The position numbers were made by a program, and so were the translations under genes. From a virus (taxonomy: Duplodnaviria; Caudoviricetes), in the IMG/VR virus record IMGVR_UViG_3300027804_002812, positions 32,001 through 96,000 of that record: a stretch of 64,000 bases of DNA, one strand, 5' to 3'. The notes under the pieces are model-generated. The model ran no database searches, was not told where the DNA came from, and was given only the letters and a program-made list of their open reading frames with translations. This document shows positions 33,301-48,025 of the stretch, piece after piece (position 1 is the first letter of the stretch; every line of letters begins with the position of its first letter).

Positions 33301-35025
33301 TACTGTAGGCTTAAAACCGATTCCAGTCGCGGTATCCTCAACTTTTCTTAAGAGGGCGGTAGAAATTTGGCTTTCGTAATCAGATAGTTTTTTGTTAGCT
33401 TGAGTTTCGAGTAATGTGATTTGTTTATCAAATCTTCCTTCATCTTCAAATACAAACCATTTTTCTTTAACTAAAGTACCCTTAGCTAAGAGTTCTAATG
33501 CTTCAATAACTCCAGATGGGGTTTTAGGTAATTCTATAGAAGTTGGGACAAAAAACTTTGTCAAATTAATTTTCGTCTGTGTTTCATCTATAGTACTAGG
33601 ATTTGCAATTCCAGTCTGAATTCTAGTTGTTTCTCTCCAATTTATTTCTGAAAACACCGGAGCCGTTGTTTCAATCATATCATACTTTATAGGGTTTGGT
33701 ATCGGAGCGGCACCTTTAGAACCTAAAGTCGGATTATTTGCTAAAGCATCATTAAATTTTACAATATCCCCTTGTAGTTGAGTTATCGCAGTTTCTTTAG
33801 CTTCTTTTGACAAGTCTTTGAATACGTATAATTTTTGACCTGTTTTAAGAACTATTGGCTTAGTATTCAAATTAATGTTAAACCAAGATGTATTTGACCC
33901 TCTTACTGCAGTAAAATATTGTGTGAGAACAGATTTATAATTTCTTATATTCGTTAATGATTCAACTTCAGTTTTGTCAAATGAATCTGCAATTAGTTGT
34001 TCAAAACTCTCCAACTTATTCATAAGTTGTACTAATGTCAATTCAGGAAAGTCGGGAGCAATTAACCCTTTAGCTTTGTATTCACTATAAACTTCTATTA
34101 TTTTTTGATACCCTTTTTCCGCAACAAGTTGAGTAACCACCGCTTCATTAGAATCTAAATTATTGGCTCCCCTTTCGGCTTGAGTACTTGCTTGAGACTC
34201 CGCTGCCTTATTGGGTTGTTGTGGCCCATCTACTGTTTGAGTAACATCAAACCTTTGGCTGTACATGTGTGGAGCCGCCAATAGGTGACCCATAGAAACT
34301 TCATTCAAGATATTAAATTTATATCCGACGAAATTTAATCTAACCTGATAATTTCCGCTAAATCCATTAAACGAAGCATGGAAATTTTTTAAGTTAAGTT
34401 GATATCTAATTGCTTGTCCATAATACCCTTTTAATGTAAGATAGAATTGTGGGTATGGCAAATTAAAAAATGCGGAGTAAGGGGAATTGTTTCCTAATTG
34501 AAATAGCCCTTTCCCTTGAACATCTTCCAACAACATTTCTACAGTAGGAATGAAACTTGATGACGTTTTTATATTAATTGATGTAATTCCTAACAATCCA
34601 TTATCAATTATGTCTTTTTGATTTACAACCGTGTCAAGTATATAAGGGTTACTATTATCTGTCGCAGGCTGTGCTATTGCGGCTTTTTGATTTTCCCCTT
34701 TGAATTGTGTTGTATTTTCTCCAGTTAACTCATCATAATAACCTGTTCCAAGATACGAATTTTTACTAGGTTTCAAAAAATTCATTTTCGCCACAGAGAT
34801 AGTTCCGATTCTATCATTAGGACTCCCACCAACCGATAATTTTGTTCTCGGTAGAACATCAGCTTCAAGATTGGCGTACATGACAAGATTTTCATGGTCA
34901 ACAAGTCTTTCTCTAATATTTCCAAAATTATCTGTAGTTTTGTTAGGGTCGACTACAATAATATTGTTTTCGTCCAACTCAACTAAAATATTTCCACTTG
35001 TGTCCGCTTGTGTGTTACCTACCAT
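27316..35025 (-). CDS. Giant baseplate hub protein (gp27/gpD/VgrG-like) with C-terminal lysozyme-like and IPT/TIG domains
   Basis: LGNALIQPTMYFNLRHVPMFDGPYLITDVTHTI..FQTTFDG.R is a hub-type C-terminal motif; PPPVLSTFSPSAGFTGTIVQVNGRNF is IPT/TIG-like; follows the gp53-like gene. Confidence 0.65.
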   Translation of the reverse strand: MVGNTQADTSGNILVELDENNIIVVDPNKTTDNFGNIRERLVDHENLVMYANLEADVLPRTKLSVGGSPNDRIGTISVAKMNFLKPSKNSYLGTGYYDELTGENTTQFKGENQKAAIAQPATDNSNPYILDTVVNQKDIIDNGLLGITSINIKTSSSFIPTVEMLLEDVQGKGLFQLGNNSPYSAFFNLPYPQFYLTLKGYYGQAIRYQLNLKNFHASFNGFSGNYQVRLNFVGYKFNILNEVSMGHLLAAPHMYSQRFDVTQTVDGPQQPNKAAESQASTQAERGANNLDSNEAVVTQLVAEKGYQKIIEVYSEYKAKGLIAPDFPELTLVQLMNKLESFEQLIADSFDKTEVESLTNIRNYKSVLTQYFTAVRGSNTSWFNINLNTKPIVLKTGQKLYVFKDLSKEAKETAITQLQGDIVKFNDALANNPTLGSKGAAPIPNPIKYDMIETTAPVFSEINWRETTRIQTGIANPSTIDETQTKINLTKFFVPTSIELPKTPSGVIEALELLAKGTLVKEKWFVFEDEGRFDKQITLLETQANKKLSDYESQISTALLRKVEDTATGIGFKPTVRNMLAVIMASAEGFIRLLDDVHTNAWDVKYDPVRKQAIYNDLASAPSSDSQDDLKLAANAFEEETGLKLAEIPVYPWPQFFVETQDEKNKFQLKYIADPSVVDLTQGYLFDKWPEVEFVEEYMKGLTQKFQNPNAPPPLDNERDTNIININAIEFPSVGLAYSNKEEIKFFYEIWERQFLTSHYSGFIRGNTNQINELITLNIEAEANNIISKLGISSPYLTLKLKNFNLNAQDYPEFLRTISNSGTGRAYQDFIRDFFVTPYIKRITENSFSILSTLDLGKIPQTATKSEALRSLVVNAPNDPLIVDTLPYTDQTWCLNNLNQGNSALSNQVYNTNKSLTIFEQRRIIANFTDVYNYTTNRPVTNFSYILNQNPTNTIDTTGLSTYTTYGPLGLNAFYLNRTPQDFVATEGYINGTTPTRAFSPRSTTSMLNTPYFINAVQNGVYNSRLSGNTYPYVQAAYMFLNSLPLATLREKYKSVSNNITTDLDYISSTFKKFGAIHKLPYAWILKYGSIWHRYKKYKESNVDILESAWKNFDYAGNYYPVTSAVTETYEFKYSNVDTKITLQSEEDTQIQMQVGFYPKVINDFNVFLNGYDLYENYTSEEIQQSVNSGMKLYNFSSSNINSAKQGDKNLRLTTWSILLPNITIRPPVDCNPKDNTVGDDYFVIPSFGTSFNQTVDSCLSAQTTSPATVVDLTNNPNMYNGSVRCLWSAPNFGYFDSNQLAFPEPDSYLTSITTGNSQTPLYFLTQDNYTKIEEVFSVFEKKILDSFETEFLNFCKPIGNASTGRNIVTFGQSPVDPNSTFKNFQSLFRSLMVVPAKTQTETDELYFNNVINDQYSVFQNGIKSFMEYDVIFKYGNPSNYERRIFDSYLSHNNTQEVVDPITFEPYVPNSLPSAGGNLTLSQSQINNRQAWTTLETEVGFSTIPNVRYSSIGSYITDFFIDNNIAFTSDNVTLLAPIIKMYATQKLNNPNLNAIQFQNQLNQYLERETLIQNNFLNGVLSRLRKDLPDQVQLPERVINSVITGDQSKVENYEVFKALNDKWIAGGDWKTKTLFEDMLFLDRASRNIGESILLDIFDLKYMFGVGGKTPGEFSLNQAMSVFTFISGILIKNNFVVMPLPAYVNFYNIQDVDVTATPKLDRPEQFANNLWGTFLDVDYRNSGPKMVCFYAGKPSQYLKLPKGDSKYRDDAFEMRRSSGNPLLEDQQGKKDWALSNKCVGFNVDVGIRNQNIFYALSVSQDNGVATSESINVQLDMANQASGRQIATQNNSLYNLYKNRSYKCSITSLGNALIQPTMYFNLRHVPMFDGPYLITDVTHTIQQGSFQTTFDGTRQGYFDLPTIDSFLQSINQNLITKLEEILKINKDQLKISATTDNVKSSQVVQQADNTKDTTNSCSSKITAPVYTNGGYEVVNATLTEMTPQDFANALRRLIPNNVDLQVAIYTISYIRTYQEASNTGAGMFNGWNNNFATLSLSQDWFGQVSLLQKTYSCINIRTNPENTSSEPIAHFESLDKYIQFMAGRLRENVDTGRIARLGLSKYYVCHWPVDNISEEYYDENEDEFLQTKQTFDKALTSAAESGLKTKNEILKDIENNENNGNQEQTPTVTPTIGQTCPPPVLSTFSPSAGFTGTIVQVNGRNFESLKSIRVIDKDVELKDITVFNSETLRFILPEIQIPEGQNVATGRITVITEFGTFESLVDFTFNSALENTTTSSPGGYANTNTQQQLTTSQQNIVGININPQNTGELPFIYEIFRDELGNTLELDVRINPQVQGWKISETNVYSYTIYKLIVGPNNVLKEEVIKEQNNQKLENFVSQDQQEFSINKQQMSTLLNLDEFKSENIKAVVNITLTAIPDDRTKNPKNEPLNYEFVVNVPQQSPSGIGKIILVSDTNSGELPNYMGNSYYNVVKPNGGYYTFQFTPTTNLTVTQTKIVRFPELNLLNTTVTNGPDTKYTNILEIKALGEFQMILTYTDVNSPGSTFTVTSQKFTL

Positions 35026-35338
35026 AATAATAAAAATGATTTTCTAATGCCGCCTTATAGTCCTGTAAAGATGGTAATAACGGAAATGGGATAATCAATA
35101 CAGCCCCATCATAAATATTATTTTCAAGACCTCCAAATTGCGGATTCGCCTGAAGGATTAACCAGCTAAATACAGGTGAGTTATAAAATTCTTGTGAAAC
35201 TTTATCTAGTCTACTTTTAGCAACTTTATAGATAAATGCCTTATCTGTTGGTTTTTGAGGCAGGTATACAAAGGGTACAACTGTTTGTTCCCCATTAATA
35301 AGAAAATCACTATATCTATTCCAATATTGATATGCCAT
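35015..35338 (-). CDS. Baseplate LysM-like protein (T4 gp53 / P2 gpX-like)
   Basis: RLDKVSQEFYNSPVFSWLILQANP...GAVLIIP; located between tube initiator and hub. Confidence 0.8.
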   Translation of the reverse strand: MAYQYWNRYSDFLINGEQTVVPFVYLPQKPTDKAFIYKVAKSRLDKVSQEFYNSPVFSWLILQANPQFGGLENNIYDGAVLIIPFPLLPSLQDYKAALENHFYYYGR

Positions 35339-38300
35339 TAGTTAAGTTTTGCTTTAGATATATATGCGCCAGATCCGTTTCCATTTGTATCATTCCAAGT
35401 TAATATATTAGTATTTTGATTTGTTGTATTTGCCAAACCTTTTATCATATTTTCTTGAGATTTTTTTTGTCCACTATCCGCAGAATTCTCTGTTGTAAAG
35501 GTCAAATTTCTTTGTTTGTTAGAGTCGAATGGTGTATAAATTAAATAATCTTTCAAGTCATTTTTTTCTAAATTTTCTATAAATGATTTTGTAATATTAT
35601 TTTCTTCTAAGAAAATAGGTCTAGCAGTTGCAATCCAATACGTATCAAATATTTTTTCAATGTCAACTGATCCATCACCAAGTAATGCTTGGTTACCGAG
35701 AATATTTCCTATAAGTTCTTGTTTGAATGTTTCATATTTTTTTCCATCGATTACATCATCAGAAATAATCATATATACTCTTCTAAAAGGATAGTTTTCA
35801 ACATTATCCCCAAATAAAGGATTAGTACTAAATGGTAAGAAAACTTTTTCAACTGTAACTACATTTGATTTTCCATTTGCGGTTTCGAACACTAATATTC
35901 CTTCATATGTAGTACTAGTCGCAGGATACACGAATTTTTTTCTATCTTGAATTATTACATTAAATGCCGCAATATCTTGTTGTATTTTGGTTGTATCTTG
36001 AACTAACTCCAAATATGTATCTGTTACAGCACTTGTCGAAGTTGGGTGTACGTCTGTCGTTCCTGACGTTACATATATTCGGACAGGTCCATTTTTAGCC
36101 TGTAGTCCATCAGTACCTGTGTTAGAATCTGTTGGGTCAAACAATATTGTATTTAGTCTACCAAGAGTTTGTAGATATGTCTGTTCTTCATTCACTAAAC
36201 TCTGTGTTATTGTTGAAATTCCATTCTGAAATGAACTTCTTTTCTTTGATACAAAATTTCGATAATTTTCTTTCAGAGCTCTAATTAACTTAGGTGATAA
36301 ATTTTTTGATGGTTCAGAAATAAATTTAATAAATCCTTCTGTACCATCTTTTATATTTTCATCAAGTTGTACAAATATTTCATCAAATCTTTTCTCCACA
36401 TTATTAGGTTTTCCAAACAATACTACTGTGTCAGCGGATACATTGAAATTACCTTGAGTGTAATTTCTTTCTATCATCCATTGTTGTCTTACCGCATTAT
36501 TATATTGATTGACAGTTTCCTTGGTCTTATTGACAACATTTGTAAAATACGTCTGAGTGTCACTAACAACCTTACCCATAAATTCACTATAACTTATTAC
36601 ACCCGTTGTGATTCCACTCACATCTATTAAAGAACTGATTATCGTACCAATAGTATTATTATTATCTTGACCATTGTTTGGTGCGGCACTGTTGACACCA
36701 GGAATTGGTGGAGGAACTTGACCCGCCAAAAATATTTGGTCTAATATTTTTGAAGACTCAATATCCGTGGCATCCGCCCTATCATCATAAATTTCTGTGT
36801 TAGCATAGTAATTGAAGGTTAATGCATTCTGTAACTTGTCAACCGACTCTTTCAATCCACTACCTCCAACAAAGTTAAATGATAATGTAACGTTTGCAAT
36901 CATTGGTTGAACACCAATTCCTTCAGGATTGATATCTAACCCTTCATAATTGATTGCTAGCGATGTAGGAATAATCTTTGTATTATAAAAATCACCTACT
37001 CGCAACACTAACACAGGAGGTACACCAAATGAGGTGTTGGTAGCATTATCATACTGTAATTCTTTATTGCCACTCGGAGTAGATTGTTTAACTGTTGGTA
37101 TTGTATCACCAGGTCTCATACACTGTTGTAGAAAAGTTAACCTTGAGTTTAACCCTTCAGGTGTCATAGAATGAAACGATGGTTGAAAAAACTTTAACTT
37201 ATCCTTCAGATTATCATATACCATTGGAGTTTCAGCTTTTATAGTTTCAAAGTAGTCACACTCGGATAATAAGGCTCTCACCACTTTTTTGGTTATATTA
37301 TCTCTTGGTTCCCATCTTGTTTCAATAACTGGTTCAGGTACAGTCTGAGTGACAACATTTCCAATTAAAATTGGGATTGTACCAGAACTTGTTGTAGGAT
37401 TTGTCTGTCCTCCTGGTGTCCCTTGACCATTAGGTTCTGTCTGTGGTGCCTTCAAATTCGGAACTATCTTGGAAATGTACGACCTTCTACAAGCCATTGC
37501 TCCAACTGTAAAAACTTCTAAAGCCCCAACTTTTATGTCTCCTCCAACAGCATTTGGATTAGTGTCACTACAACCAAAAGTTTTTCCGTTTGGTTGTAGT
37601 GAATCAATATATGGCCCTTTAGTTAAATTACTTTTCTTTGGATTTGATATTGCAGCTTCTCCGAGTCCACCGGCTCGTTCTTCTGGTGTACCAGGATCTT
37701 CTTTTACCATCAACCGACTTTGAGACATGAATGTTTTAGTTGCGTTGTTTTCTTGAAAGAATCTAACTGTCGCTTCTATTCTACGTTGTGATAATTCAAG
37801 ATTATATGATTCAGTTTGAGGTGCAGAACAACTCGAACTTACATATACTGTTACAGTACCTTCATTAGTTTCCAATTGTTTTCCTAAATCAATTGCAAAC
37901 TCATTCATTGCCTCGTAGTTTGGAGTAACAGTTGTATCAAAAAAAGTCTTAGTTTCTTGTGCATTAGGTCTTTTGGAATAATTTTCATTAACATCCGTAG
38001 TGTATCTTGCATATTCGGTAGTATAATTTATACTTGTTTTTGGTAACGGATAATCATTTCCAAAATAAAATCCTATTTGTATATATTTGTCAAAGTTCAA
38101 GTTTGTGTTTCCTCCTCCACCTTCTTGGGCGAGTGGCTGATCTCCTCCATTAGGTGAAAAAGCTCCTGATTCTATGGTTCCACGAGTATATACAATTTGT
38201 TCTCGGGTCATTTCCTTTGAAGAAATTGCCTGTTGTAATTCGAACAAATCATTTGGATTTACTGTTACATATTTTTTTGCTAACTCATAGATATCATATT

Positions 38301-40467
38301 TTCTACATCCAGCAAAAAATGATTCTAAAATACTGTCAACACGAGTCTTGTTTGTTTCGTTACCCAAAACTTTATTCACAATGACATTAAGAACTGATGG
38401 ATGGTCTACTACAATTTTCCATTGTAGTGATCCCGTTCTTGATGTATTTTTATAAGTGTATATTGGTTCAGGTCGTCCCAAAAAGTCAGATTGATTCCAA
38501 TTCGATGATATGTTTTCACTGAATGTTAATCCATATGGTGGAAACCACATAACTCTACCACCATTAGGACCTCTCTCACAAACAGGTAAATCAGACGTTG
38601 AAAATCCTGGAGTGCTAGATGTTCTCCATGCCAAATTTTCTAAAGAAAACATATATTTTTTGGCAACCGCATTGTTTATTGTACCAACAATATTCGTTGA
38701 ATCCTGTCCACCTTCTTGTTTGTTTGGTACAATATTAAGGTTATAAGTTTTATCTAATACTGAATACGCAAATCTTCTTCCTTCAGTTGTAATACCATCT
38801 GTTTTCTGTAAATCATTATATTGTAAGTATGGTAAATCTTTGGCAAATACACGACAATATTCAGTACCTACCTCTTGCCCGATTGCTCCAACGTATCTAT
38901 AAACTCTTGAACCCTTCGTAAGTTCTTTATATCCATCATTGAATACTTTACTTACTTGGTCTATTGCATTTCCAACGTGTTGAAGACGTTTACCTCCTTG
39001 AGGCTGACTATCAATTATTCTTTGTGTTTTGTCAAGAATAGACCCATCTCTGAAATCGTTATTAACTGACTCTGTATTAACGTAAGACGATGGTCTAAAG
39101 TCCTCATCTTGTTCAGTAACCTCACCACCAATACCAACTTTTTTACCAGCATTACCTCTGTACTTAGGTGAAACCCAAGTAAATCCACCTTCAATACCTC
39201 CACCATTACTATATGTCGGCCCATTCGCACCAAGTCTTACAGATTGACTTGGTCCTTCATATAACTGAGCTAACTCTGAAGGACCATAGACAGGTGACTG
39301 TTGTTCAACACCGAATTGGTTAACAGGAACATCTCCAACAGGAGAAAATACTTGAGATGGATTGGAAGTTATACTTCCAACATAAAAGTTACTATTATCA
39401 GATACTGTACCTAAAAGAGTACCACCTACCCTTTGGAAAAAGTTTCTTGGGAAATTAGGTTTGTATCTGTTAAAATCTATGTTTTTGAACAACCGAGACC
39501 TTTGTCCCGCACCCATGTTATTAAACATGATTTGAGATCCAGTTTCACCACCACCCATTAATCGATTAAAGAACTTACCAACACCACTTTGTCTAAAAGC
39601 ATTGGATAGTTGTTGTATTGTGGTTGGCTGACCTAAAGTTGTATTTGGGTCAAAATATGAACCTGGTATAGGTGATACAGGTAATATACTTCCTCCGAGT
39701 CTTAAAGCAAAGTTCGTTGCTGCAAGTATTGGGTTTGCAGTTACTGTGATAGTATAAACAGGCTCAATGATAGGAACAACACCTGTTAATATATTAACAA
39801 TGTCAGTACCACTAGAAACGTTAAGAATATTTGCCCTACCTAGTGTATCTTGTCGTATTTGAGCTGCAATTCTTTGTTCAAACTCTCTTCTCAAAGTTTG
39901 AGCACCTAAACGAGCAATAAATGAATCTTGACTCAAAAAACCATTACTTCCGCTCGGATCAGGGGACAATAATATTGATACAGGAGTATAATTGGAAGAT
40001 ACAAATGTTGTTGGATATGGTTGGTTGTTATTACCATTGGTAGTAATTGGTCTATTTAATGATCCGAAAAACTCCGCACTATCCAACTGAACCTGATTCC
40101 CATTTGAAAAAACATTAAGAGGTTTCCACTTTTGAGATTCTGGTAACGATTGACCTACGATATTTGCATCTTGGTATCCATATTCACCCTCATTGGATTT
40201 CGTGTTTAATAATGCTCCTGGATCCGGTACCTGTTCATATCCACCCTCATTTCCATATTGATTTAGTGGATATAACTTATTTGCAAAAGAAGGTTCATCA
40301 ATCAATTTATCAGGACTATCTTGAACTGACGAATTCGATTGAACGTATTCCGTATCGATTGGTTGTGTTGGTCTATTTGGGGCTTTTGCATAGGGTGTTA
40401 AATTCCTAGTCAAAAGTTTTTTTCTGAAACCCTCTGAATTTGCTAAATCTAATAACGGACTTGCCAT
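35338..40467 (-). CDS. Tail tube initiator-like protein (gp48/gp54, CIS-tube type) with inserted OmpA-like domain
   Basis: MWFPPYGLTFSE..SNW..DFLGRPEPIYTYKNTSR and VLRVGDFYNTKII....PMIANVTLSF flank VYVSSSCSA..YNLELSQRR...CRRSYI. Directly follows the tape measure gene. Confidence 0.6.
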   Translation of the reverse strand: MASPLLDLANSEGFRKKLLTRNLTPYAKAPNRPTQPIDTEYVQSNSSVQDSPDKLIDEPSFANKLYPLNQYGNEGGYEQVPDPGALLNTKSNEGEYGYQDANIVGQSLPESQKWKPLNVFSNGNQVQLDSAEFFGSLNRPITTNGNNNQPYPTTFVSSNYTPVSILLSPDPSGSNGFLSQDSFIARLGAQTLRREFEQRIAAQIRQDTLGRANILNVSSGTDIVNILTGVVPIIEPVYTITVTANPILAATNFALRLGGSILPVSPIPGSYFDPNTTLGQPTTIQQLSNAFRQSGVGKFFNRLMGGGETGSQIMFNNMGAGQRSRLFKNIDFNRYKPNFPRNFFQRVGGTLLGTVSDNSNFYVGSITSNPSQVFSPVGDVPVNQFGVEQQSPVYGPSELAQLYEGPSQSVRLGANGPTYSNGGGIEGGFTWVSPKYRGNAGKKVGIGGEVTEQDEDFRPSSYVNTESVNNDFRDGSILDKTQRIIDSQPQGGKRLQHVGNAIDQVSKVFNDGYKELTKGSRVYRYVGAIGQEVGTEYCRVFAKDLPYLQYNDLQKTDGITTEGRRFAYSVLDKTYNLNIVPNKQEGGQDSTNIVGTINNAVAKKYMFSLENLAWRTSSTPGFSTSDLPVCERGPNGGRVMWFPPYGLTFSENISSNWNQSDFLGRPEPIYTYKNTSRTGSLQWKIVVDHPSVLNVIVNKVLGNETNKTRVDSILESFFAGCRKYDIYELAKKYVTVNPNDLFELQQAISSKEMTREQIVYTRGTIESGAFSPNGGDQPLAQEGGGGNTNLNFDKYIQIGFYFGNDYPLPKTSINYTTEYARYTTDVNENYSKRPNAQETKTFFDTTVTPNYEAMNEFAIDLGKQLETNEGTVTVYVSSSCSAPQTESYNLELSQRRIEATVRFFQENNATKTFMSQSRLMVKEDPGTPEERAGGLGEAAISNPKKSNLTKGPYIDSLQPNGKTFGCSDTNPNAVGGDIKVGALEVFTVGAMACRRSYISKIVPNLKAPQTEPNGQGTPGGQTNPTTSSGTIPILIGNVVTQTVPEPVIETRWEPRDNITKKVVRALLSECDYFETIKAETPMVYDNLKDKLKFFQPSFHSMTPEGLNSRLTFLQQCMRPGDTIPTVKQSTPSGNKELQYDNATNTSFGVPPVLVLRVGDFYNTKIIPTSLAINYEGLDINPEGIGVQPMIANVTLSFNFVGGSGLKESVDKLQNALTFNYYANTEIYDDRADATDIESSKILDQIFLAGQVPPPIPGVNSAAPNNGQDNNNTIGTIISSLIDVSGITTGVISYSEFMGKVVSDTQTYFTNVVNKTKETVNQYNNAVRQQWMIERNYTQGNFNVSADTVVLFGKPNNVEKRFDEIFVQLDENIKDGTEGFIKFISEPSKNLSPKLIRALKENYRNFVSKKRSSFQNGISTITQSLVNEEQTYLQTLGRLNTILFDPTDSNTGTDGLQAKNGPVRIYVTSGTTDVHPTSTSAVTDTYLELVQDTTKIQQDIAAFNVIIQDRKKFVYPATSTTYEGILVFETANGKSNVVTVEKVFLPFSTNPLFGDNVENYPFRRVYMIISDDVIDGKKYETFKQELIGNILGNQALLGDGSVDIEKIFDTYWIATARPIFLEENNITKSFIENLEKNDLKDYLIYTPFDSNKQRNLTFTTENSADSGQKKSQENMIKGLANTTNQNTNILTWNDTNGNGSGAYISKAKLN

Positions 40468-40517: not shown

Positions 40518-42371
40518 TCAGTAGGATGCTCCTCCTCCACCTTTATATGCATTACTCGGAGTAGTAACATTAACGATATAATCCTTAAATCTCTGCTCAT
40601 TAATCTTGTCAGAGAAAGTTTTGGTAATTTGTTCTTTCTGTTCTGAACTTAATCCTGTCGGCATATCTTGGAATTTCACGTTTACCTTTATTTCTCCAAG
40701 TAACTCAATAAGGCTTTTTTGTTCTCTTACTTGGTTCTCAACAGTACCTAAATTTCGGTTAGCCCCCGACATTCCTTCGACTGTAAGGCTTGTCCAAAAA
40801 TCATCTTCAGTTGTTGTTCCTCCACTACCACCTTTCTTCAATGGATTTAATTCAAAATCTGAAACTTTTGTTGCTAAATTTTCCAAAATTTTATCAATAT
40901 TTTCACCAGCCTTTCCTAAATATCCACCTTCGTTGGCTAATTCTTTTTTTATTTGTTCAGCAGCTCCTGACAATTTTTCTTTTGATTCTCCAGTCAACTT
41001 TATGAACGACCCACCTGTTTCTGTTACTAACGTAGTTAATGCTCCCTTAATATCTCCGGATGAAATCATTGTCTCTATACTACCCTTAAACTTTTCGCTG
41101 AGTTCTTCACTTGATTTCCTAATTGAATCTGTAGTAACAGTATCAACACCAGCCCTTCCAGTAATTTCTGCAAGGGTTCGACCACCTTCACGTAAATCTG
41201 CAATATTTTTGTCGGTAAGTATCCCTCCTAAAACCGCGTATTTAATAGCCGCGATATCACTCTGCATAATCTCATTAACAGTTAATTGGGATCTTTGTAA
41301 CTCTTCAACAGTTTTTGGTCCTGTTTTTTGAGCTTCAATTAATTTTTCAAATTCAGGTTGTGTAAGGTCGGCTAACTCTTTCTGAGTTCCATCTTTCAAT
41401 GTCACTTGGTAAGTTCCATCCTTGCCCAATTTAGCAATATTCGCTAAATATTGTTTGTCTTCTTCATTAACTATTGATAGACCCGCAGAATTGACTGCAG
41501 CAAGTCTATCGTCTAATTCTGCTGCTGCTAATCCCATTTTAGATAAAGATCCTGCACTCAAATTAGCAGCTTGCTCCATTTCTCGGAGAATCAAAACTCC
41601 TTGTGGATTCATTTTGTATGTTTTTGATTTTTCATCAAAAAACGTATACTGTTTTGAAACTTCTGCCAAACTATCTTGTAAAGCACCGGGATCATTAATT
41701 GATGCATTCATCAAAGCAAAAGGGTCAACTAAATTGCCAGCAGCAACTCCCAATCTTTGGAACGCCGACGCAACTTCAATCGCACCCTCAGGTGAGATTA
41801 CCTTTTCTGCCAGAGCAAATGTATTTGACATTTCAAATCTCAACATCGATGCTTGGGCCGCCATTTTTGTTAATCCTACAACACCACCTTCGAACTGATA
41901 TCGGTTCATCTGATCCATGTTCTTTTGGACATCCTGCATGACTTGACGAGCATTACCTCCAATACCTCTAACATAGTCGATAGACTCTTCTAGTTTTTTT
42001 GACATTTGTTCAATTCCAACACCAACGTCCAAAAAACTATTAGTTAAATCTTGCGCACTTATTCCAAGAGTTTTTGTAGCAGCAAATAACGACTTAATTT
42101 CTTCATCATTCGCAACAACATTCCTACGTGCGGCAACACCAACTTCTTGTATGATTCTACCAACATCCTTTATATCCCCCCCTAAACTCCTAACCCCAGG
42201 TAACGAATCTGTTATCGCTCTTTGAAATTCAAAAACTCTCTCCCTACCTTGAGTAAAGGTACCAATAATTTGATTAGATACTTTATCTAAACTTATTCGA
42301 ACATCGTCAATGTTAAAACTTTCGGGTTTTGAAGCTCCGGTATCACCGGCGGTTTCTGCTTGAAAAAACAT
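40518..42371 (-). CDS. Tape measure protein
   Basis: 617 aa, helical and Ala/Gly/Leu/Gln-rich, immediately after the tail chaperone pair. Confidence 0.75.
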   Translation of the reverse strand: MFFQAETAGDTGASKPESFNIDDVRISLDKVSNQIIGTFTQGRERVFEFQRAITDSLPGVRSLGGDIKDVGRIIQEVGVAARRNVVANDEEIKSLFAATKTLGISAQDLTNSFLDVGVGIEQMSKKLEESIDYVRGIGGNARQVMQDVQKNMDQMNRYQFEGGVVGLTKMAAQASMLRFEMSNTFALAEKVISPEGAIEVASAFQRLGVAAGNLVDPFALMNASINDPGALQDSLAEVSKQYTFFDEKSKTYKMNPQGVLILREMEQAANLSAGSLSKMGLAAAELDDRLAAVNSAGLSIVNEEDKQYLANIAKLGKDGTYQVTLKDGTQKELADLTQPEFEKLIEAQKTGPKTVEELQRSQLTVNEIMQSDIAAIKYAVLGGILTDKNIADLREGGRTLAEITGRAGVDTVTTDSIRKSSEELSEKFKGSIETMISSGDIKGALTTLVTETGGSFIKLTGESKEKLSGAAEQIKKELANEGGYLGKAGENIDKILENLATKVSDFELNPLKKGGSGGTTTEDDFWTSLTVEGMSGANRNLGTVENQVREQKSLIELLGEIKVNVKFQDMPTGLSSEQKEQITKTFSDKINEQRFKDYIVNVTTPSNAYKGGGGASY

Positions 42372-42422: not shown

Positions 42423-42591
42423 TGTTTAGTTCAACCCATTTATCTAAAAGATACTTCCTAATGAATACTGGCATTATTAAAAAATCAGAATAAGATATAT
42501 TCAAAAGTGTCTTGAGGTAGTAAAATTCATCTATTTGCCCTTTCCTATAATCAGAAGAAAGGACGAAAAAAGTCAACCCCAAACCCAACAT
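42412..42591 (-). CDS. Tail assembly chaperone second ORF (T4 gp51 / lambda T-like); absent from the ORF track
   Basis: 59 aa MLGLGLTFFVLSSDYRKGQIDEFYYLKTLLNISYSDFLIMPVFIRKYLLDKWVELNKKD. It overlaps the upstream gene by 41 nt in the +1 frame; the S.SDFL.MP..R pattern resembles chaperone extensions. Confidence 0.7.
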   Translation of the reverse strand: MLGLGLTFFVLSSDYRKGQIDEFYYLKTLLNISYSDFLIMPVFIRKYLLDKWVELNKKD

Positions 42592-43294
42592 TGACTGTTA
42601 GTTTCTCTCCTGATGGGGCTATTACTGTTCTCGTTAAATCTAATTTTGGTTCATTTTCTTCCATAAACTTTCTTATGTATTTGGAATCTGCAATTGGCAT
42701 TTGTTCTATAAATCTTGCGATTTCAGATCTATCGGTTATTCCATTTACTTCAATGATTTGTTTGTTCAATCTCCAAGTAACTTTTGGTGCAGTTCTACCT
42801 TGTGGATATGACTCCGACATTTTTTGTACTTCCAAAATTTCGCCATAAGTCATGGGTTTCAATTTTACAGTAGTTTGTGATTTAGGTAACATAGTTATAA
42901 AAGTTCCATCATCAGACGGTTGTTGACCTTTAATAACATCTAATTCATCTAATCTAACTACCCCTTTGAATGGTTTTTTTGTAATCGGGTCAACCAAGTT
43001 TAATTCCATTTCAGGTCCGAACGAAGTATTTCTCAAAAAAATTAATATCGATTCAACATCACCTTCCAATAAATCTTCAATACGAACATCTGGTTCGTAA
43101 ATCTTTGATCTTAAAAGAGTTTGTGTCATGTCATTACCACCAGCCATAAGGATGTTTTCATCATTTGCGGTAAGATATCCAACTTTGATTGATTTTTTCT
43201 TATTCTTGTAGAAGAGACCTTGTGTCGGTAAAGGCACAACGTCGTGAGGTAACGTAAAATTCGATTGTCCGTGTTCTCTTGCTTGATTATCCAT
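42551..43294 (-). CDS. Tail/baseplate assembly chaperone (T4 gp26-like)
   Basis: LPTQGLFY, YLTANDENIL, LLEGDVESILIFLRNTSFG and C-terminal GVDFFRP; located between tube and tape measure. Confidence 0.75.
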   Translation of the reverse strand: MDNQAREHGQSNFTLPHDVVPLPTQGLFYKNKKKSIKVGYLTANDENILMAGGNDMTQTLLRSKIYEPDVRIEDLLEGDVESILIFLRNTSFGPEMELNLVDPITKKPFKGVVRLDELDVIKGQQPSDDGTFITMLPKSQTTVKLKPMTYGEILEVQKMSESYPQGRTAPKVTWRLNKQIIEVNGITDRSEIARFIEQMPIADSKYIRKFMEENEPKLDLTRTVIAPSGEKLTVNVGFGVDFFRPFF

Positions 43295-43375: not shown

Positions 43376-43864
43376 TTAGTAAACAAGTACGCAACGGTCC
43401 ATTCTAAGTGTTGCATTAATTGTCGCTAGTCCGTCTTGTGCGTAACTCAAAGTATTGAAGTTAACATCAGTTAAGAATGTTCCGTACAAAATCCATTTTT
43501 CTACAACAACACCGGTTGGGTCCAACATTTCGAGGTCGACATCTTTTTTGTAACCCGCAGCATAACCCATACGACCTGTTACAGATTCAGCATGTAAACG
43601 AACCCACTCCATAAGAGCTTGAGCCGCTGAAGGTCCAATTGGATCTCTAAACACCGCCGGAATTGTTTGCCAAGTGAATTTACCCGCGACATAAGTTTCA
43701 GTATTCAAGAAAGGAATTGGAACTGGGTTTATAATAATATGTGGTCTTGCAGAAGATTCAACAAACCATTCATTTATACCAAGAGATGATGGAAACCTTA
43801 GGATAAAACGATTCTGTCGTTTTGGTTCGTAAGGAATCGGCATTTTCATTAACAAATCAGCCAT
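43376..43864 (-). CDS. Tail tube protein (T4 gp19-like)
   Basis: YEPKRQNRF, GKFTW, GYAAGYKKD..LEMLDPTG.VVEKW.L.G motifs. Confidence 0.9.
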   Translation of the reverse strand: MADLLMKMPIPYEPKRQNRFILRFPSSLGINEWFVESSARPHIIINPVPIPFLNTETYVAGKFTWQTIPAVFRDPIGPSAAQALMEWVRLHAESVTGRMGYAAGYKKDVDLEMLDPTGVVVEKWILYGTFLTDVNFNTLSYAQDGLATINATLRMDRCVLVY

Positions 43865-43957: not shown

Positions 43958-44788
43958 TTATTTAACTTCCTGCTTAACTCCTCCAGCAGTAGAATAAGTT
44001 TTTACTATATTATCTGGTTTATTTTTGAAGTGTTTTTGCATTACTTCTATATTTTTTGGATCATCGTCACTAAATCCTATAGATAAATTATCCGGATTAA
44101 ATTTATTACTTATATCCTTTTTTAAGAAAGCCTTTTTATTAAGCACTGCCGCCATAGCCTTAATGTAATTTACAAAACCTTCCATTGCCTCTACTTTAGC
44201 TTCTTCAGGATTAACTGCTCCTTGGTCATCTCCAAAAGACACTGGATGATACTTATTAAGTTCCAAATATGACTTAATTAATTCTTCATCACTCATTTCA
44301 TCTTCACCTATAAAAGACCTATATTTTTTAAGATTTTTAATTAACTCGTCTTTATCGATTCCGTTGAACCCTTCTATAATATAATTATAAATTGCTTCTT
44401 TTATGGTGTTTGGATTGTGTCCCCTCGCAGTAATTATCGCAAATATTGAACCGTTATTGATTGCTTCTCTGAAATCATCGAACGCTGGTCCTTCTTTCGC
44501 CCTCATTGCATCCACCAAAAAATCTTTATCCCCATCGGTTCTAAAGTTTCTGAACGGAGAGTCACTATAACCTACAATTGTGTTACCTTTATAATTAAAT
44601 GGTTCTTTTCCTATTTGATGTCTAAACTCAGCGAAATCATCAGTAGGCATCCCAACCTCATTACCACTCTCATCTTTAACTAAAATTTTAGTTGGCATAT
44701 GAACTATATTATCGTCCCAATCGAACGCATAATATTTTAAGTCCGGAGTACCCTCACTTTTGAATCCTTCTGTAAAAACTTTTTCCAT
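43958..44788 (-). CDS. HAD-superfamily phosphatase-like protein
   Basis: Motif I AFDWDDNI, motif II IITARGH, motif IV GFSDDD. Confidence 0.75.
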   Translation of the reverse strand: MEKVFTEGFKSEGTPDLKYYAFDWDDNIVHMPTKILVKDESGNEVGMPTDDFAEFRHQIGKEPFNYKGNTIVGYSDSPFRNFRTDGDKDFLVDAMRAKEGPAFDDFREAINNGSIFAIITARGHNPNTIKEAIYNYIIEGFNGIDKDELIKNLKKYRSFIGEDEMSDEELIKSYLELNKYHPVSFGDDQGAVNPEEAKVEAMEGFVNYIKAMAAVLNKKAFLKKDISNKFNPDNLSIGFSDDDPKNIEVMQKHFKNKPDNIVKTYSTAGGVKQEVK

Positions 44789-44824: not shown

Positions 44825-47800
44825 TTAGATATTTTCGAACGAAGCTCCTGTTGGAGTGATGAAGAATTCGATATCGATGAATTCTAATGCCTTCGTTGGT
44901 TTTAAGTATATCTTTCCTGTTAATGTATTTCTATCTAAATCTTCAGGTGAAGAAGAAACTGTTACTCTGAAATCATAAAGACCTCTGTCTCTTCTAATTG
45001 AATCTAAGATAGGGTTAACACTATCCAAGAATTGTTGTCTAACGATTTGGTCGTTTTGTTCGAACAACAATCTTACCGCTACTGCTGAAATCAACTTACG
45101 AGCTTGAAGTAATAATCTCCTTACGTTCAGTCTGTTAAGTGCTGTGTCAGCAACTTGTAAGGTTTTGTTACCCCAAATTACAGTTCCCACATCAGAGAAT
45201 GTTGCAATTGGGTTGATTCTACCTTGATACAAAGTATCTCTGTCTTCTTGAGTCAATTTAACTCTCGCTTTGATAGAGTTTACAAGACCTCTTGTGTAAC
45301 CCGCTGAAGCGAACCAAGGGAATGCAATGTTATCTGTCAATGCCAAGTTTCTACAAACTTCTCCTGTTGGTGGAAGATAGATTTGTGTATTATTAACAGT
45401 ATCTCTTGTAAGAATCCAAGGATAGTAAGTCGCAGTGTAGTTAGAATCAATACCTGTGTTATCCAAGTTGTCAACCGCTTCTTGAGGATAAATAATATCC
45501 TGTGGATTTGTTGCATCGGGAGTAAACATTTGGTAATCAGGTGTAGTTGCAATGTAAACTGAATCCGCTCTTGAGAATTGTACCATGTCAATAGCTTCTT
45601 CAACAAGGTTAGAGTTGTTTACATAATCAATACTTGATGTCGCAAATACGTTGATGTTCGTTGATTCAGGATTTGCAAATGTCAATATACCAAGTAAGTA
45701 AGCGTAGTAGTCAGTGTTCGCAAAATCTTGAGTATTGTTTTGAACTACAATTCTTTTGAATAGACCATCACCAGTCGCGTTTGGATATCTTGTAGATGGA
45801 GATGCTCCTGCCAAGAAACCTGTTGCTCCCAATTGGAATCTGTCCTCGTTAGTTCTAAACTCTCTATAAATGTCCCATCCATCAAAACCACCCGCGAAAC
45901 ATATTGTGAATTTTCTTGAGTAGATGAAGTAATAAGGGTTTTCTTGAGTTTCAGGGTCTCTTGTAAAGTCAGCAACACCACATTCAAATGCTGTTTGACC
46001 ACTTGTTAAAAATGAATTAGCAAGTGTTACTACTGTTGCGCCAGAATCCATGTGGAAACCTTTACTTAAATAATTCCATGGTGCCCCTTCAACAGGAAGT
46101 GGAGATGTAATCCAGCTAATAGGATTTTGTGTTCCTTTATATTGTAAGAATGAATCATCAACTCCAAATTGACTTGAGAAACCTAAGTAACTTCTTCTAA
46201 CAATGTCACCTGAAGATTCAGTTACATCAGTTGGAGCTCCGAATGGAGGGTTATAAATAACTTCACCAGGAAAGTAATATTTTGTTTTGAAAATTGGAAC
46301 TGGTGAAGGGTTGGTTACCGAAGAGTATTCTCTTTGTGTGTATCCATAGAAACCACAAGGGATAGCATCAATTGGTGCTTCGTCAGCCAACTCAATCATA
46401 ATGTAACGTGAAATCAATGCATACTCTCCGTCACTTGAACCGATTTTCTTAGCAACGAAATTATTAGATGCCGGATCCATGTTACAGTTAGTGAATTTTT
46501 CAATCACCACAGGGTTAGCGTCAGTGTCAAAGAAATTTCTAACCAACACATCAAATGTCATGTTATTAAATGATAAGTTAGTGATAGAAATTTTTACCTC
46601 TGTGTTTGCAGCATTACCGTCAGAAATTGATATAAACTTGAATAAGTTATAAACCTTATTACCTCTAAGTTCAGATACTAAATATGGTGTACTCGGTGAC
46701 TTATATTGAGTTACATTGTAAGCTATTGATTGTGAGTTCTCACTTCTAGCATCTTCAAGTGCTATCAAATTACAATTCAAACCACGAATATATCCTTGAT
46801 TATACGCATAATTCAAAGTATTAGGGTAAATCTCTTCAACATAAACAGGAACCTCGTTTCTTGATTTACCAAAGTTATCAACACCAAGAACTTTAGTGAT
46901 GAACTTAGAAGACGATGCCGCCATTGAAGTTTCAAAAGAGAAATTGTCTCCGTCTTTTGTTACACCTGAAATTAAGAATGTCTCAAATGGTGATTGAGTA
47001 ACACCTGAGTATTGTTCACTACAATTCAAAGTCAAAGCTGATAATGCGTTAACTTCATAAATCGGTCCGTGGTTGTCACTTGTAGAACTATTAGTGTATA
47101 AAGATATACCTCTTGAACGTAAAGTTGCAACAACCATGTTGTTATATTCAGAGTAAGCAGTTCCTGAGTAAGTATAAACATTACCAGATATCGTACCTGT
47201 GAATGTTGAGGACGCTCCTGAAGTTAATGAAGATACATAATAGAAGAATGAATATCCAGAATATGCATTTCCTGAAGTAATATCAAAGTTAGCATAATAC
47301 CATGGATCATTCGAATCAGAAGACAAGTCGTTAGTTGCAAGATTAACTGTGTCACAATCATATTCATTTATTATGTTTGAATAAGTTGCGGTCAAGTCAT
47401 AAAAGTTAGATTCAGGCATTGCTCCATAAACAACTGCTGTGTTAGCAGATAAAGATGGAGTATCCATGATATTATCAAGGTTACTTGTAAAATCCAACGC
47501 TAAAGTTGATGTGCTACCATCAGACAATCTATATTGAGTGTTAAAATTCGCAAGAACTTGTGGAGGTAATGCTCCACCTGTAAATGTTACAGTATTTCCT
47601 GAAGATGACCCTGAGAAGTTTGCACTCCATGTAGTTCCAGTTGCCGGATTAAGACCGATAGTTAATGGGTCAACATTCGCAGTTACCTTGATACTCCAAG
47701 ATGGTCCTGCGTCATATCCAGATAAACCTAAAATTCTCGTAACGAAAAGTTGGTTAGATTGTTGTAAATATGATTTTGCGATATAAGCCGCTTCATATTT

Positions 47801-48025
47801 CGGGATTTGTGTGTTTATAAATTTTGTAGGTTCAGTCCCCCCAAAATATGCTTGAAACTCATCATAGTTTGTGATAAAAATAGGTTCGAATGCGGGACCT
47901 TTAATTGTTTCTCCCACTAAACCTAGTGTAGTCACACCCACACTTTGAGCCACAAATGATAAGTCAGTTTCAGACGTATATACTCCAGGCGATACGTATA
48001 CCTTTTGATTTACTTGTGTTGCCAT
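44825..48025 (-). CDS. Contractile tail sheath protein (T4 gp18-like), enlarged
   Basis: SPGVY..ETDLS, GET.KGP, YYPW, WFASAG..RG, INPI, VIWGNKTL, LNVRRL and EFI.IEF motifs. Confidence 0.95.
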   Translation of the reverse strand: MATQVNQKVYVSPGVYTSETDLSFVAQSVGVTTLGLVGETIKGPAFEPIFITNYDEFQAYFGGTEPTKFINTQIPKYEAAYIAKSYLQQSNQLFVTRILGLSGYDAGPSWSIKVTANVDPLTIGLNPATGTTWSANFSGSSSGNTVTFTGGALPPQVLANFNTQYRLSDGSTSTLALDFTSNLDNIMDTPSLSANTAVVYGAMPESNFYDLTATYSNIINEYDCDTVNLATNDLSSDSNDPWYYANFDITSGNAYSGYSFFYYVSSLTSGASSTFTGTISGNVYTYSGTAYSEYNNMVVATLRSRGISLYTNSSTSDNHGPIYEVNALSALTLNCSEQYSGVTQSPFETFLISGVTKDGDNFSFETSMAASSSKFITKVLGVDNFGKSRNEVPVYVEEIYPNTLNYAYNQGYIRGLNCNLIALEDARSENSQSIAYNVTQYKSPSTPYLVSELRGNKVYNLFKFISISDGNAANTEVKISITNLSFNNMTFDVLVRNFFDTDANPVVIEKFTNCNMDPASNNFVAKKIGSSDGEYALISRYIMIELADEAPIDAIPCGFYGYTQREYSSVTNPSPVPIFKTKYYFPGEVIYNPPFGAPTDVTESSGDIVRRSYLGFSSQFGVDDSFLQYKGTQNPISWITSPLPVEGAPWNYLSKGFHMDSGATVVTLANSFLTSGQTAFECGVADFTRDPETQENPYYFIYSRKFTICFAGGFDGWDIYREFRTNEDRFQLGATGFLAGASPSTRYPNATGDGLFKRIVVQNNTQDFANTDYYAYLLGILTFANPESTNINVFATSSIDYVNNSNLVEEAIDMVQFSRADSVYIATTPDYQMFTPDATNPQDIIYPQEAVDNLDNTGIDSNYTATYYPWILTRDTVNNTQIYLPPTGEVCRNLALTDNIAFPWFASAGYTRGLVNSIKARVKLTQEDRDTLYQGRINPIATFSDVGTVIWGNKTLQVADTALNRLNVRRLLLQARKLISAVAVRLLFEQNDQIVRQQFLDSVNPILDSIRRDRGLYDFRVTVSSSPEDLDRNTLTGKIYLKPTKALEFIDIEFFITPTGASFENI

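Follow-up and report, generated by a model that had tools for sequence, protein, structure and literature searches.

A predicted OmpA-like domain nested in the tail-tube fold of P0001, a giant baseplate protein of an uncultured contractile-tailed phage

P0001 is a 1709-residue baseplate protein encoded by a freshwater phage that is represented by a 326,291-bp virus record in IMG/VR (IMGVR_UViG_3300027804_002812). The stretch of DNA analyzed here, termed the window, comprises 64,000 nucleotides, bases 32001-96000 of that record (G+C ~34%). Structure prediction supports an architecture in which a domain with the OmpA-like fold is nested between the two halves of a tail-tube fold. P0001 would be a tube initiator carrying an accessory module of a wall-binding type; initiators that bear LysM modules are already known. 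A preliminary description of the window, made from its letters and translations, had proposed an OmpA-like domain inside a gp48/gp54-type tube fold, a proposal borne out by AlphaFold2 modeling and structure searches. The motifs that it quoted are all present in one intact open reading frame (ORF) of 1709 residues, where it had placed them: WFPPYGLTFSE at residues 641-651 (38515-38547) and GRPEPIY at residues 664-670; IGFYFGNDYP at residues 798-807, VTVYVSSS...SQRRIEATVRFF at residues 872-904 (37756-37854), and CRRSYI at residues 993-998; and LRVGDFYNTK at residues 1155-1164 and PMIANVTLSF at residues 1188-1197. The flanking motifs of this set fall in long β-strands of the predicted tube fold. 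For the nested domain, a role as a tethered grip on the host cell wall, engaged once the tube tip enters the periplasm, is tentatively favored from the analyses below.

The split tail-tube fold and the OmpA-like insert

Two blocks of P0001, residues ~602-760 and ~1051-1205, are strongly conserved family-wide, and the C-terminal half of the tube fold is the most conserved part of the family. An AlphaFold2 model of residues 600-1210, built with 96 sequences, has a mean predicted local distance difference test score (pLDDT) of 70. In this model, the conserved blocks have pLDDT values of 60-88, and each contributes long β-strands, with helices on the side that faces the insert. Together, residues ~602-749 and ~1057-1205 are predicted to form a tail-tube fold that is nearest to tube initiators.

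Structural comparisons were made with VIA-align on the candidates returned by Foldseek and, independently, on 48,161 PDB chain representatives. The only structures matched by the flanks taken jointly (model residues 1-604) are tube initiators or tube proteins from contractile systems, with Z scores of 8.0-9.5 over 119-151 residues, which are only modestly above the background of 7-8 stated for the tool. The matches comprise the PVC baseplate chain 6j0n_b (Z 9.5, 145 residues), the Afp7-type chain 6rao_G of AFP (Z 9.1), the Pvc7-type chain 9qgl_7A of PlPVC1 (Z 8.7-8.9), chain 9ay5_G of P1 (Z 8.8), proteins of E217 and pyocin R2 (Z 8.6 and 8.3, respectively), and chain 5iv5_BE of the T4 baseplate-tube complex (Z 8.0). 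The tube-fold assignment is therefore based on the exclusivity of these matches, on their spanning both halves, and on gene context. Among the predicted viral structures of BFVD, the named matches are “Baseplate tail tube cap” or Gp48 proteins of T4-like phages (E 1e-3 to 4e-2) and contractile-injection-system tube proteins. Foldseek returned no match for the 611-residue model at E ≤ 0.001; most of the weaker candidates that it listed are nevertheless OmpA-like domains, tube-type proteins, or proteins of baseplates. At the level of sequence families, Pfam, PHROG, and NCBIfam gave no match to annotated gp48/gp54, and neither the whole protein nor any of its five parts matched PHROGs. The sole NCBIfam match of P0001, to TraB over the OmpA motif, is spurious.

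Similar to T4 gp48 and gp54, P0001 combines a tail-tube fold with a gene position in the tube/hub region and has extra helical elements inserted in the tube fold. T4 gp48 is 364 residues long, compared with 1709 residues for P0001. The additional length of P0001 includes the nested OmpA-like domain and large N- and C-terminal regions, and no match at the sequence level is seen in Pfam, PHROGs, or 50,697 phage records.

The insert folds in the AlphaFold2 model as a strand, two helices, a strand, a helix, a strand, a subdomain of ~65 residues, a short helix, and a final strand. In VIA-align, this part of the model (residues 181-407) matches OmpA-like peptidoglycan-binding domains. The match to Acinetobacter baumannii OmpA in complex with a peptidoglycan pentapeptide (3td5_A) has a Z score of 10.7 and covers 119 of 119 residues with a root-mean-square deviation of 2.5 Å. 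Pal proteins (Z 10.1-10.7), PorE (Z 10.6 over 135 residues), and YfiB (Z 8.1-9.5) are also matched, as are TagL, OprF, and MotB. In the scan of the 48,161 PDB chains, the top nine are all OmpA-like (Z 9.8-10.7), and the top 50 are all either OmpA-like domains or tube-type proteins. Like the P0001 insert, PorE, a protein of the type IX secretion system, has a large insertion in the β3-α3 loop.

Profile searches give the same picture as the structural comparisons and confirm that the resemblance to OmpA is more than chance. A profile of the insert matches 17 solved PDB chains, all OmpA-like, with E values of 1.5e-4 to 9e-3, and a profile of the whole protein matches the same solved OmpA-like chains; phmmer searches of the PDB sequences with P0001 or the insert as single sequences returned nothing. 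The Pfam OmpA family matches 11 of 30 divergent homologues, with a best E value of 1.4e-6. For P0001 itself, the Pfam OmpA score is 14.6 bits with the whole protein, 17.8 bits with the isolated insert (E 0.0045), and 19.3 bits in a six-frame search. Against 5.8 billion proteins, the insert alone retrieved just two fragments of the P0001 family and no free-standing bacterial relative.

Two linkers of low complexity join the insert to the tube fold. The low-confidence residues of the first linker sit in blocks whose 10-residue pLDDT means are 36-51. Both linkers vary in length among homologues: this is seen for linker 1, and the aligned stretch that spans linker 2 (residues 1007-1069) is 34-141 residues long.

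The ligand crevice and the distribution of the insert

The P0001 insert shares its fold, the β-α-β-α-β-β arrangement seen at the C terminus of OmpA, and its motif set with OmpA, Pal, MotB, and TagL (PF00691). In TagL, the residues that contact diaminopimelate are D486, N494, L497, and R501, and the protein no longer binds the wall when N494, L497, or R501 is mutated (PMC8253398). Alignments place S881, N889, L892, and R896 of P0001 at the same spacing as these four residues. Conservation was counted over 139 insert-bearing clusters that are mutually ≤50% identical. N889 is an asparagine in 123 of these clusters, L892 a leucine in 120, and R896 an arginine in 130. The preliminary description had named two checks, prediction of an OmpA-like fold and conservation of the binding residues in homologues. 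The fold is predicted; conservation is seen for the asparagine, leucine, and arginine (86-94% of the clusters) but not for the aspartate, which is replaced by a conserved serine. It had also singled out SQRRI as a departure from the canonical motif. That sequence does depart, but in a minor way, with the key residue R896 kept; the real departure is S881, which went unmentioned.

Other conserved positions of the insert fit the general OmpA_C motif set, which includes F-x-F, YNxxLSxRR, GxGE, and an RR pair before the last strand. In the loop that follows β1, F802 is conserved in 120 of the clusters, N804 in 105, D805 in 92, and P807 in 115; G936 and E937 are conserved as well. C966 (111/139), C993 (101/139), and R994 (108/139) are conserved in columns that contain 25-27 gaps. 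The two cysteines, placed between β3 and β4, presumably occupy the site of the C-terminal disulfide of Escherichia coli OmpA; such a conserved pair would not be usual in a protein of cytoplasmic synthesis. In an alignment of 66 sequences, the crevice residues and these other positions, C966, C993, and R994 included, are invariant, although the identity of the insert falls to 24-35% in the most distant loci. The crevice is therefore under selection, with a fixed, noncanonical serine. Judged from sequence, the change from aspartate to serine suggests that binding is altered or weaker, and the conserved D805 on the neighboring loop possibly helps binding. P. gingivalis PorE, which resembles P0001 in its loop insertion, keeps the aspartate.

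The stretch between the two conserved blocks ranges from 52 to 643 residues across the family and is ~290 residues long in P0001. An insert hidden Markov model detects a homologous insert in 139 of 150 representative divergent clusters. Four insert-less clusters (P0191, P0232, P0235, and P0240) have mere linkers of 52-116 residues in its place. In a tree of the flanks (FastTree, midpoint root), which is indicative only, the insert-less members are scattered among insert-bearing relatives, suggesting an old insertion followed by a few losses. Insert-less homologues could in principle be assembly artifacts; the short linker is shared by four independent clusters. Because the insert is absent from a few scattered lineages, it is dispensable for building the tube ring. 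At the other extreme, the inserts of P0262 (643 residues) and of P0259, P0261, P0266, and P0267 (450-480 residues) are longer than an OmpA-like domain needs, and a Pfam scan of P0262, P0261, and P0267 recognized no family besides OmpA. In the most distant loci, the insert is 24-35% identical, compared with 48-55% for the flanks.

The P0001 family is very large, and its members come from metagenomes only, including those of lakes, oceans, and guts. A word-indexed search gave 3833 matches, and an exhaustive search gave 1583 clusters at 50% identity. Members were located at 590 or more IMG/VR loci, and contigs of 300-340 kb are represented in the family. Neither the whole protein nor its most conserved part retrieved a homologue by tblastn from 50,697 GenBank phage records. 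Relatives also occur on contigs binned into metagenome-assembled genomes or single-cell assemblies (L085-L096), labeled Chryseobacterium, Flavobacteriaceae (a 248-kb contig), Bacteroidetes, Prevotella, Aquiluna, Polynucleobacter, Prochlorococcus, Methanobacterium, and Bacilli. These are probably mis-binned phage DNA, and the more distant of the binned relatives have reduced or degenerate inserts. An assignment of the host from the labels of metagenome-assembled genomes was rejected as unreliable, given their spread from Chryseobacterium to Methanobacterium; the four Bacteroidota labels among 12 are a weak hint only.

The tail module and its LysM-like neighbor

The P0001 gene occupies the tube/hub part of a contractile-tail module (Table 1). 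The order on the minus strand is sheath, 276-residue ORF, tube, T4_baseplate/phrog_150 gene, 617-residue ORF, P0001, 107-residue ORF, and 2569-residue ORF. The neighbors of P0001 include the sheath and tube genes as well as genes of hub-chaperone-like, LysM-like, and giant hub type. The sheath resembles that of T4 distantly and is ~30% identical to sheaths of a Microcystis phage and T4-like cyanophages. P0001 is present as a single copy, with one match only in the whole 326-kb genome. The 617- and 276-residue ORFs have zero matches in Pfam, PHROGs, and NCBIfam; by position, one of them may be the tape measure or a second tube-initiator ring.

Directly downstream of P0001 lies the 107-residue ORF, whose start codon overlaps the P0001 stop codon (TAATG, read directly at the junction). 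Its end overlaps the start of the 2569-residue ORF by 11 nucleotides, and the three genes look translationally coupled. The 107-residue protein matches phrog_7145, annotated as “baseplate wedge subunit” (E 1.3e-4), and weakly matches the NCBIfam LysM model (E 0.026, far below the model cut-off); a Pfam search gave no match. LysM-like domains are structural parts of the tube initiators Pvc7, Afp7, AlgoCIS, and Mu gp43 and of T4 gp53, in which they bind wedge and sheath-initiator proteins (PMC12546770, PMC11915804). Because a LysM-like protein is encoded directly downstream of P0001, this phage probably provides the customary glue module of the baseplate as a separate protein. If the 107-residue protein is a LysM module, the OmpA-like domain adds to it and is no substitute for it. 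That the OmpA-like domain replaces the LysM glue was considered and is unlikely for the same reason.

The regions of P0001 outside the tube fold lack recognizable relatives in the collections searched. The N-terminal region (residues 1-601) has no match in Pfam, PHROG, or NCBIfam, and an ESM Atlas search of residues 1-600 returned unnamed viral clusters only, all below 0.85. As a monomer, the N-terminal 640 residues are modeled by AlphaFold2 with a mean pLDDT of 42.8, which is too poor for a structure search. This region has dozens of nearly invariant positions, including at the extreme N terminus, and may fold only within the assembled baseplate. No recognized family was found in Pfam or PHROGs for the C-terminal region (residues 1206-1709).

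A second OmpA_C protein, of 392 residues, is encoded in the same genome outside the window (G000:C1:135568-135843 (-); ORF L001:1405-2583 (-)), adjoining a capsid-like gene. It scores 38.6 bits against Pfam OmpA, above the cut-off, and retains the binding aspartate and arginine. An hhalign comparison of the insert profile with this protein aligned the motif segment only, with a probability of 5%, and thus gives no indication that the domain arose by recent duplication inside the phage genome.

Table 1. Positions in the window of P0001, its parts, and the neighboring tail genes
Feature	Position	Strand	Remarks
P0001, 1709-residue baseplate protein	35338-40467	minus	One intact ORF, from ORF list and translation
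N-terminal region, residues 1-601	38665-40467	minus	Highly conserved, many nearly invariant columns
Tube-fold N-half, residues 602-749	38221-38664	minus	Strands at residues 638-686, then helices; model strands (E) E39-43, E46-61, E70-87
Linker 1, residues 750-788	38104-38220	minus	Gly/Glu/Thr/Ser-rich; pLDDT <50 at model residues 151-154, 156-189
OmpA-like domain, residues 789-1009	37441-38103	minus	10-residue pLDDT means mostly 83-97, short low stretch at model residues 375-382
β1 and β1-α1 loop, FYFGNDYP, residues 800-807	38047-38070	minus	F802, N804, D805, P807 conserved
S881, site of the canonical diaminopimelate-binding Asp	37825-37827	minus	Aligned to D of GHTD/GYTD/SHAD in solved chains
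YNLELSQRR, residues 888-896	37780-37806	minus	Carries N889, L892, R896
C966 ... C993-R994-R995, Cys pair and RR before last strand	37483-37572	minus	Co-conserved
Linker 2, residues 1010-1056	37300-37440	minus	Thr/Pro/Gly-rich; pLDDT <50 at model residues 412-471
Tube-fold C-half, residues 1057-1205	36853-37299	minus	Helices (H), then long β-hairpin; model H458-516, E554-557, E564-580, E587-601
C-terminal region, residues 1206-1709	35341-36852	minus	Variable, low conservation
Tail sheath	44825-48025	minus	First in module order
276-residue ORF	43958-44788	minus	Between sheath and tail tube
Tail tube	43376-43864	minus	
T4_baseplate/phrog_150 protein	42551-43294	minus	
617-residue ORF	40518-42371	minus	Between T4_baseplate-family gene and P0001
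107-residue LysM-like ORF, small baseplate protein	35015-35338	minus	Directly downstream of P0001
2569-residue ORF (giant hub gene)		minus	Next after the 107-residue ORF

Possible roles of the nested domain

In T4, (gp48)6 is the tube's distal end, exposed after contraction, where it encounters both the tape-measure protein and the membrane (bioRxiv 10.64898/2026.03.06.709160). By analogy, P0001 would be an enlarged gp48-type tail-tube initiator, or “tube cap”, of a distant T4-like jumbo phage. It would occupy the position of a hexameric ring, with the nested OmpA-like domain of each subunit held on two flexible tethers of ~40-47 residues. Upon contraction, the ring would move with the tube tip through the outer membrane, and the tethered domains could then bind the stem peptide of peptidoglycan via the conserved Asn-Leu-Arg crevice. 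The tip would thereby be held at the wall while a path to the inner membrane is opened by the adjacent giant hub protein together with the tape-measure protein. P0001 is a virion protein: the producing cell makes it in its cytoplasm, and it would encounter peptidoglycan no earlier than in the next host. OmpA-like domains serve as wall anchors in another contractile machine, the type VI secretion system, in which TagL and TssL fulfill this role. Compared with OmpA, Pal, MotB, and TagL, the P0001 domain is nested rather than terminal, has a conserved serine in place of the aspartate, and has a sub-threshold Pfam score.

A wall grip is ranked first among the readings on four grounds: conservation of the crevice, flexible tethers of variable length, a domain with which some lineages dispense, and an apparently separate glue. 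Linkers of low complexity and variable length, with pLDDT values below 50, suit a module that reaches. Several points weigh against this ranking. The Pfam OmpA scores of P0001 (14.6-19.3 bits) lie below the gathering cut-off of 27.2 bits. In OmpA, Pal, and TagL, an aspartate pairs with the amino group of diaminopimelate; at this site, S881 is a serine in 118 of the 139 clusters, and none of them has an aspartate. The serine is no mere reflection of host wall chemistry, because the 392-residue OmpA_C protein of the same genome keeps the aspartate. In A. baumannii OmpA, mutation of the equivalent aspartate, D271, reportedly abolishes binding. With subunits of 190 kDa, a hexamer would be a bulky object to drive across an envelope, and a monomer model does not fix the placement of the N-terminal 600 and C-terminal 500 residues or an outward orientation of the domain. 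Finally, the LysM-like domains of known tube initiators are structural glue and not wall binders (PMC12546770, PMC11915804).

That last point makes a structural role a real rival, since LysM is well known to serve structurally in tube initiators and in T4 gp53. It also qualifies the remark of the preliminary description that anchoring of the tube to the cell wall would be unfamiliar from T4-type baseplates. The OmpA-like domain could be a module co-opted for protein-protein contacts, fastening the tube-initiator ring before contraction to proteins of the wedge, the sheath initiator, or the hub. In that case, its conserved crevice would hold a peptide from another protein of the virion instead of the cell wall. 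This role, considered rather unlikely, is ranked second because of the LysM precedent, which includes Pvc7, Afp7, Mu gp43, and T4 gp53 (PMC12546770, PMC11915804), and because the canonical aspartate is missing family-wide. Retention of the domain in 139 of 150 clusters would fit a structural part, and the low-confidence linkers may simply reflect partners that are missing from a monomer model. However, natural members in which the domain gives way to gaps of 52-116 residues are scattered among insert-bearing relatives, and a separate LysM-like protein is encoded immediately downstream. In addition, the invariant residues belong to the ligand crevice known from OmpA-like domains, and linkers that vary as widely as those of P0001 (34-141 residues around linker 2) would be odd for a rigid strut.

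The known initiators differ from P0001 in how the accessory module is mounted. Pvc7, Afp7, AlgoCIS, and Mu gp43 are likewise tube initiators with a module of a peptidoglycan-binding family (PMC12546770, PMC11915804), and the PVC and AFP proteins are the best matches to the tube part of P0001 (Z 8.7-9.5). In these proteins, the module is a LysM domain, located at the C terminus or in a helix-rich domain and packed rigidly on wedge and sheath-initiator proteins. In P0001, the module is OmpA-like and nested in the tube fold on two linkers predicted to be flexible, and the LysM-like protein is separate.

Two further readings are ranked below the wall grip and the structural role. It is improbable, though conceivable, that the domain docks the tube tip by hooking a protein of the host periplasm, such as a component of the Tol-Pal system, or a noncanonical ligand or modified stem peptide. 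OmpA-like domains do bind proteins, as in Pal-TolB and YfiB-YfiR, and both Pal and YfiB rank high among the structures that match the insert. The conserved change from aspartate to serine argues for altered specificity and not decay, and the tethers would permit searching in the periplasm. Nothing in the sequence, however, points to TolB or any other specific partner, the conserved residues are those used for diaminopimelate contacts, and the fold match does not separate Pal from OmpA. Least probable is a relic without a present ligand that is kept since its removal would disturb folding of the split tube domain: the sub-cut-off Pfam score, the missing aspartate, and the faster evolution of the insert relative to the flanks (24-35% versus 48-55% identity in the most distant loci) would fit such a relic, but the crevice residues are invariant in 66 sequences and conserved at 85-94% over 139 clusters, and the clean losses indicate that a useless insert could go, yet it rarely does.

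Full-text searches of the literature on OmpA-like domains in baseplates, tube initiators, and contractile tails found no relevant description. A recent survey of envelope-related proteins of huge phages covers β-barrel OmpA proteins and never mentions baseplates. The role of the distal tube tip in the periplasm after contractile firing is only now being resolved, so far for T4 alone. The P0001 family offers a candidate wall-engaging module that is built into the tube tip, is spread over >1,500 clusters, and has defined residues to mutate. Extending the wall grip to the whole family is more doubtful than the grip itself: anchoring of the tip may be a general infection step in a very large clade of uncultured contractile-tailed phages, in which six tethered Ser-pocket OmpA-like domains on the distal tube ring would clamp the tip, from the periplasmic side, to the wall or to a Pal-type partner, for example of the Tol system, and the wall would act as a fixed point for genome delivery. 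If wall binding is true, the family would add a new step to infection by contractile tails and a noncanonical ligand pocket to the OmpA family. If the role is structural, P0001 would follow LysM as the second independent instance in which baseplates took up a wall-binding fold as glue. Both outcomes would aid the annotation of giant baseplate proteins in uncultured jumbo phages, which have so far gone unassigned.

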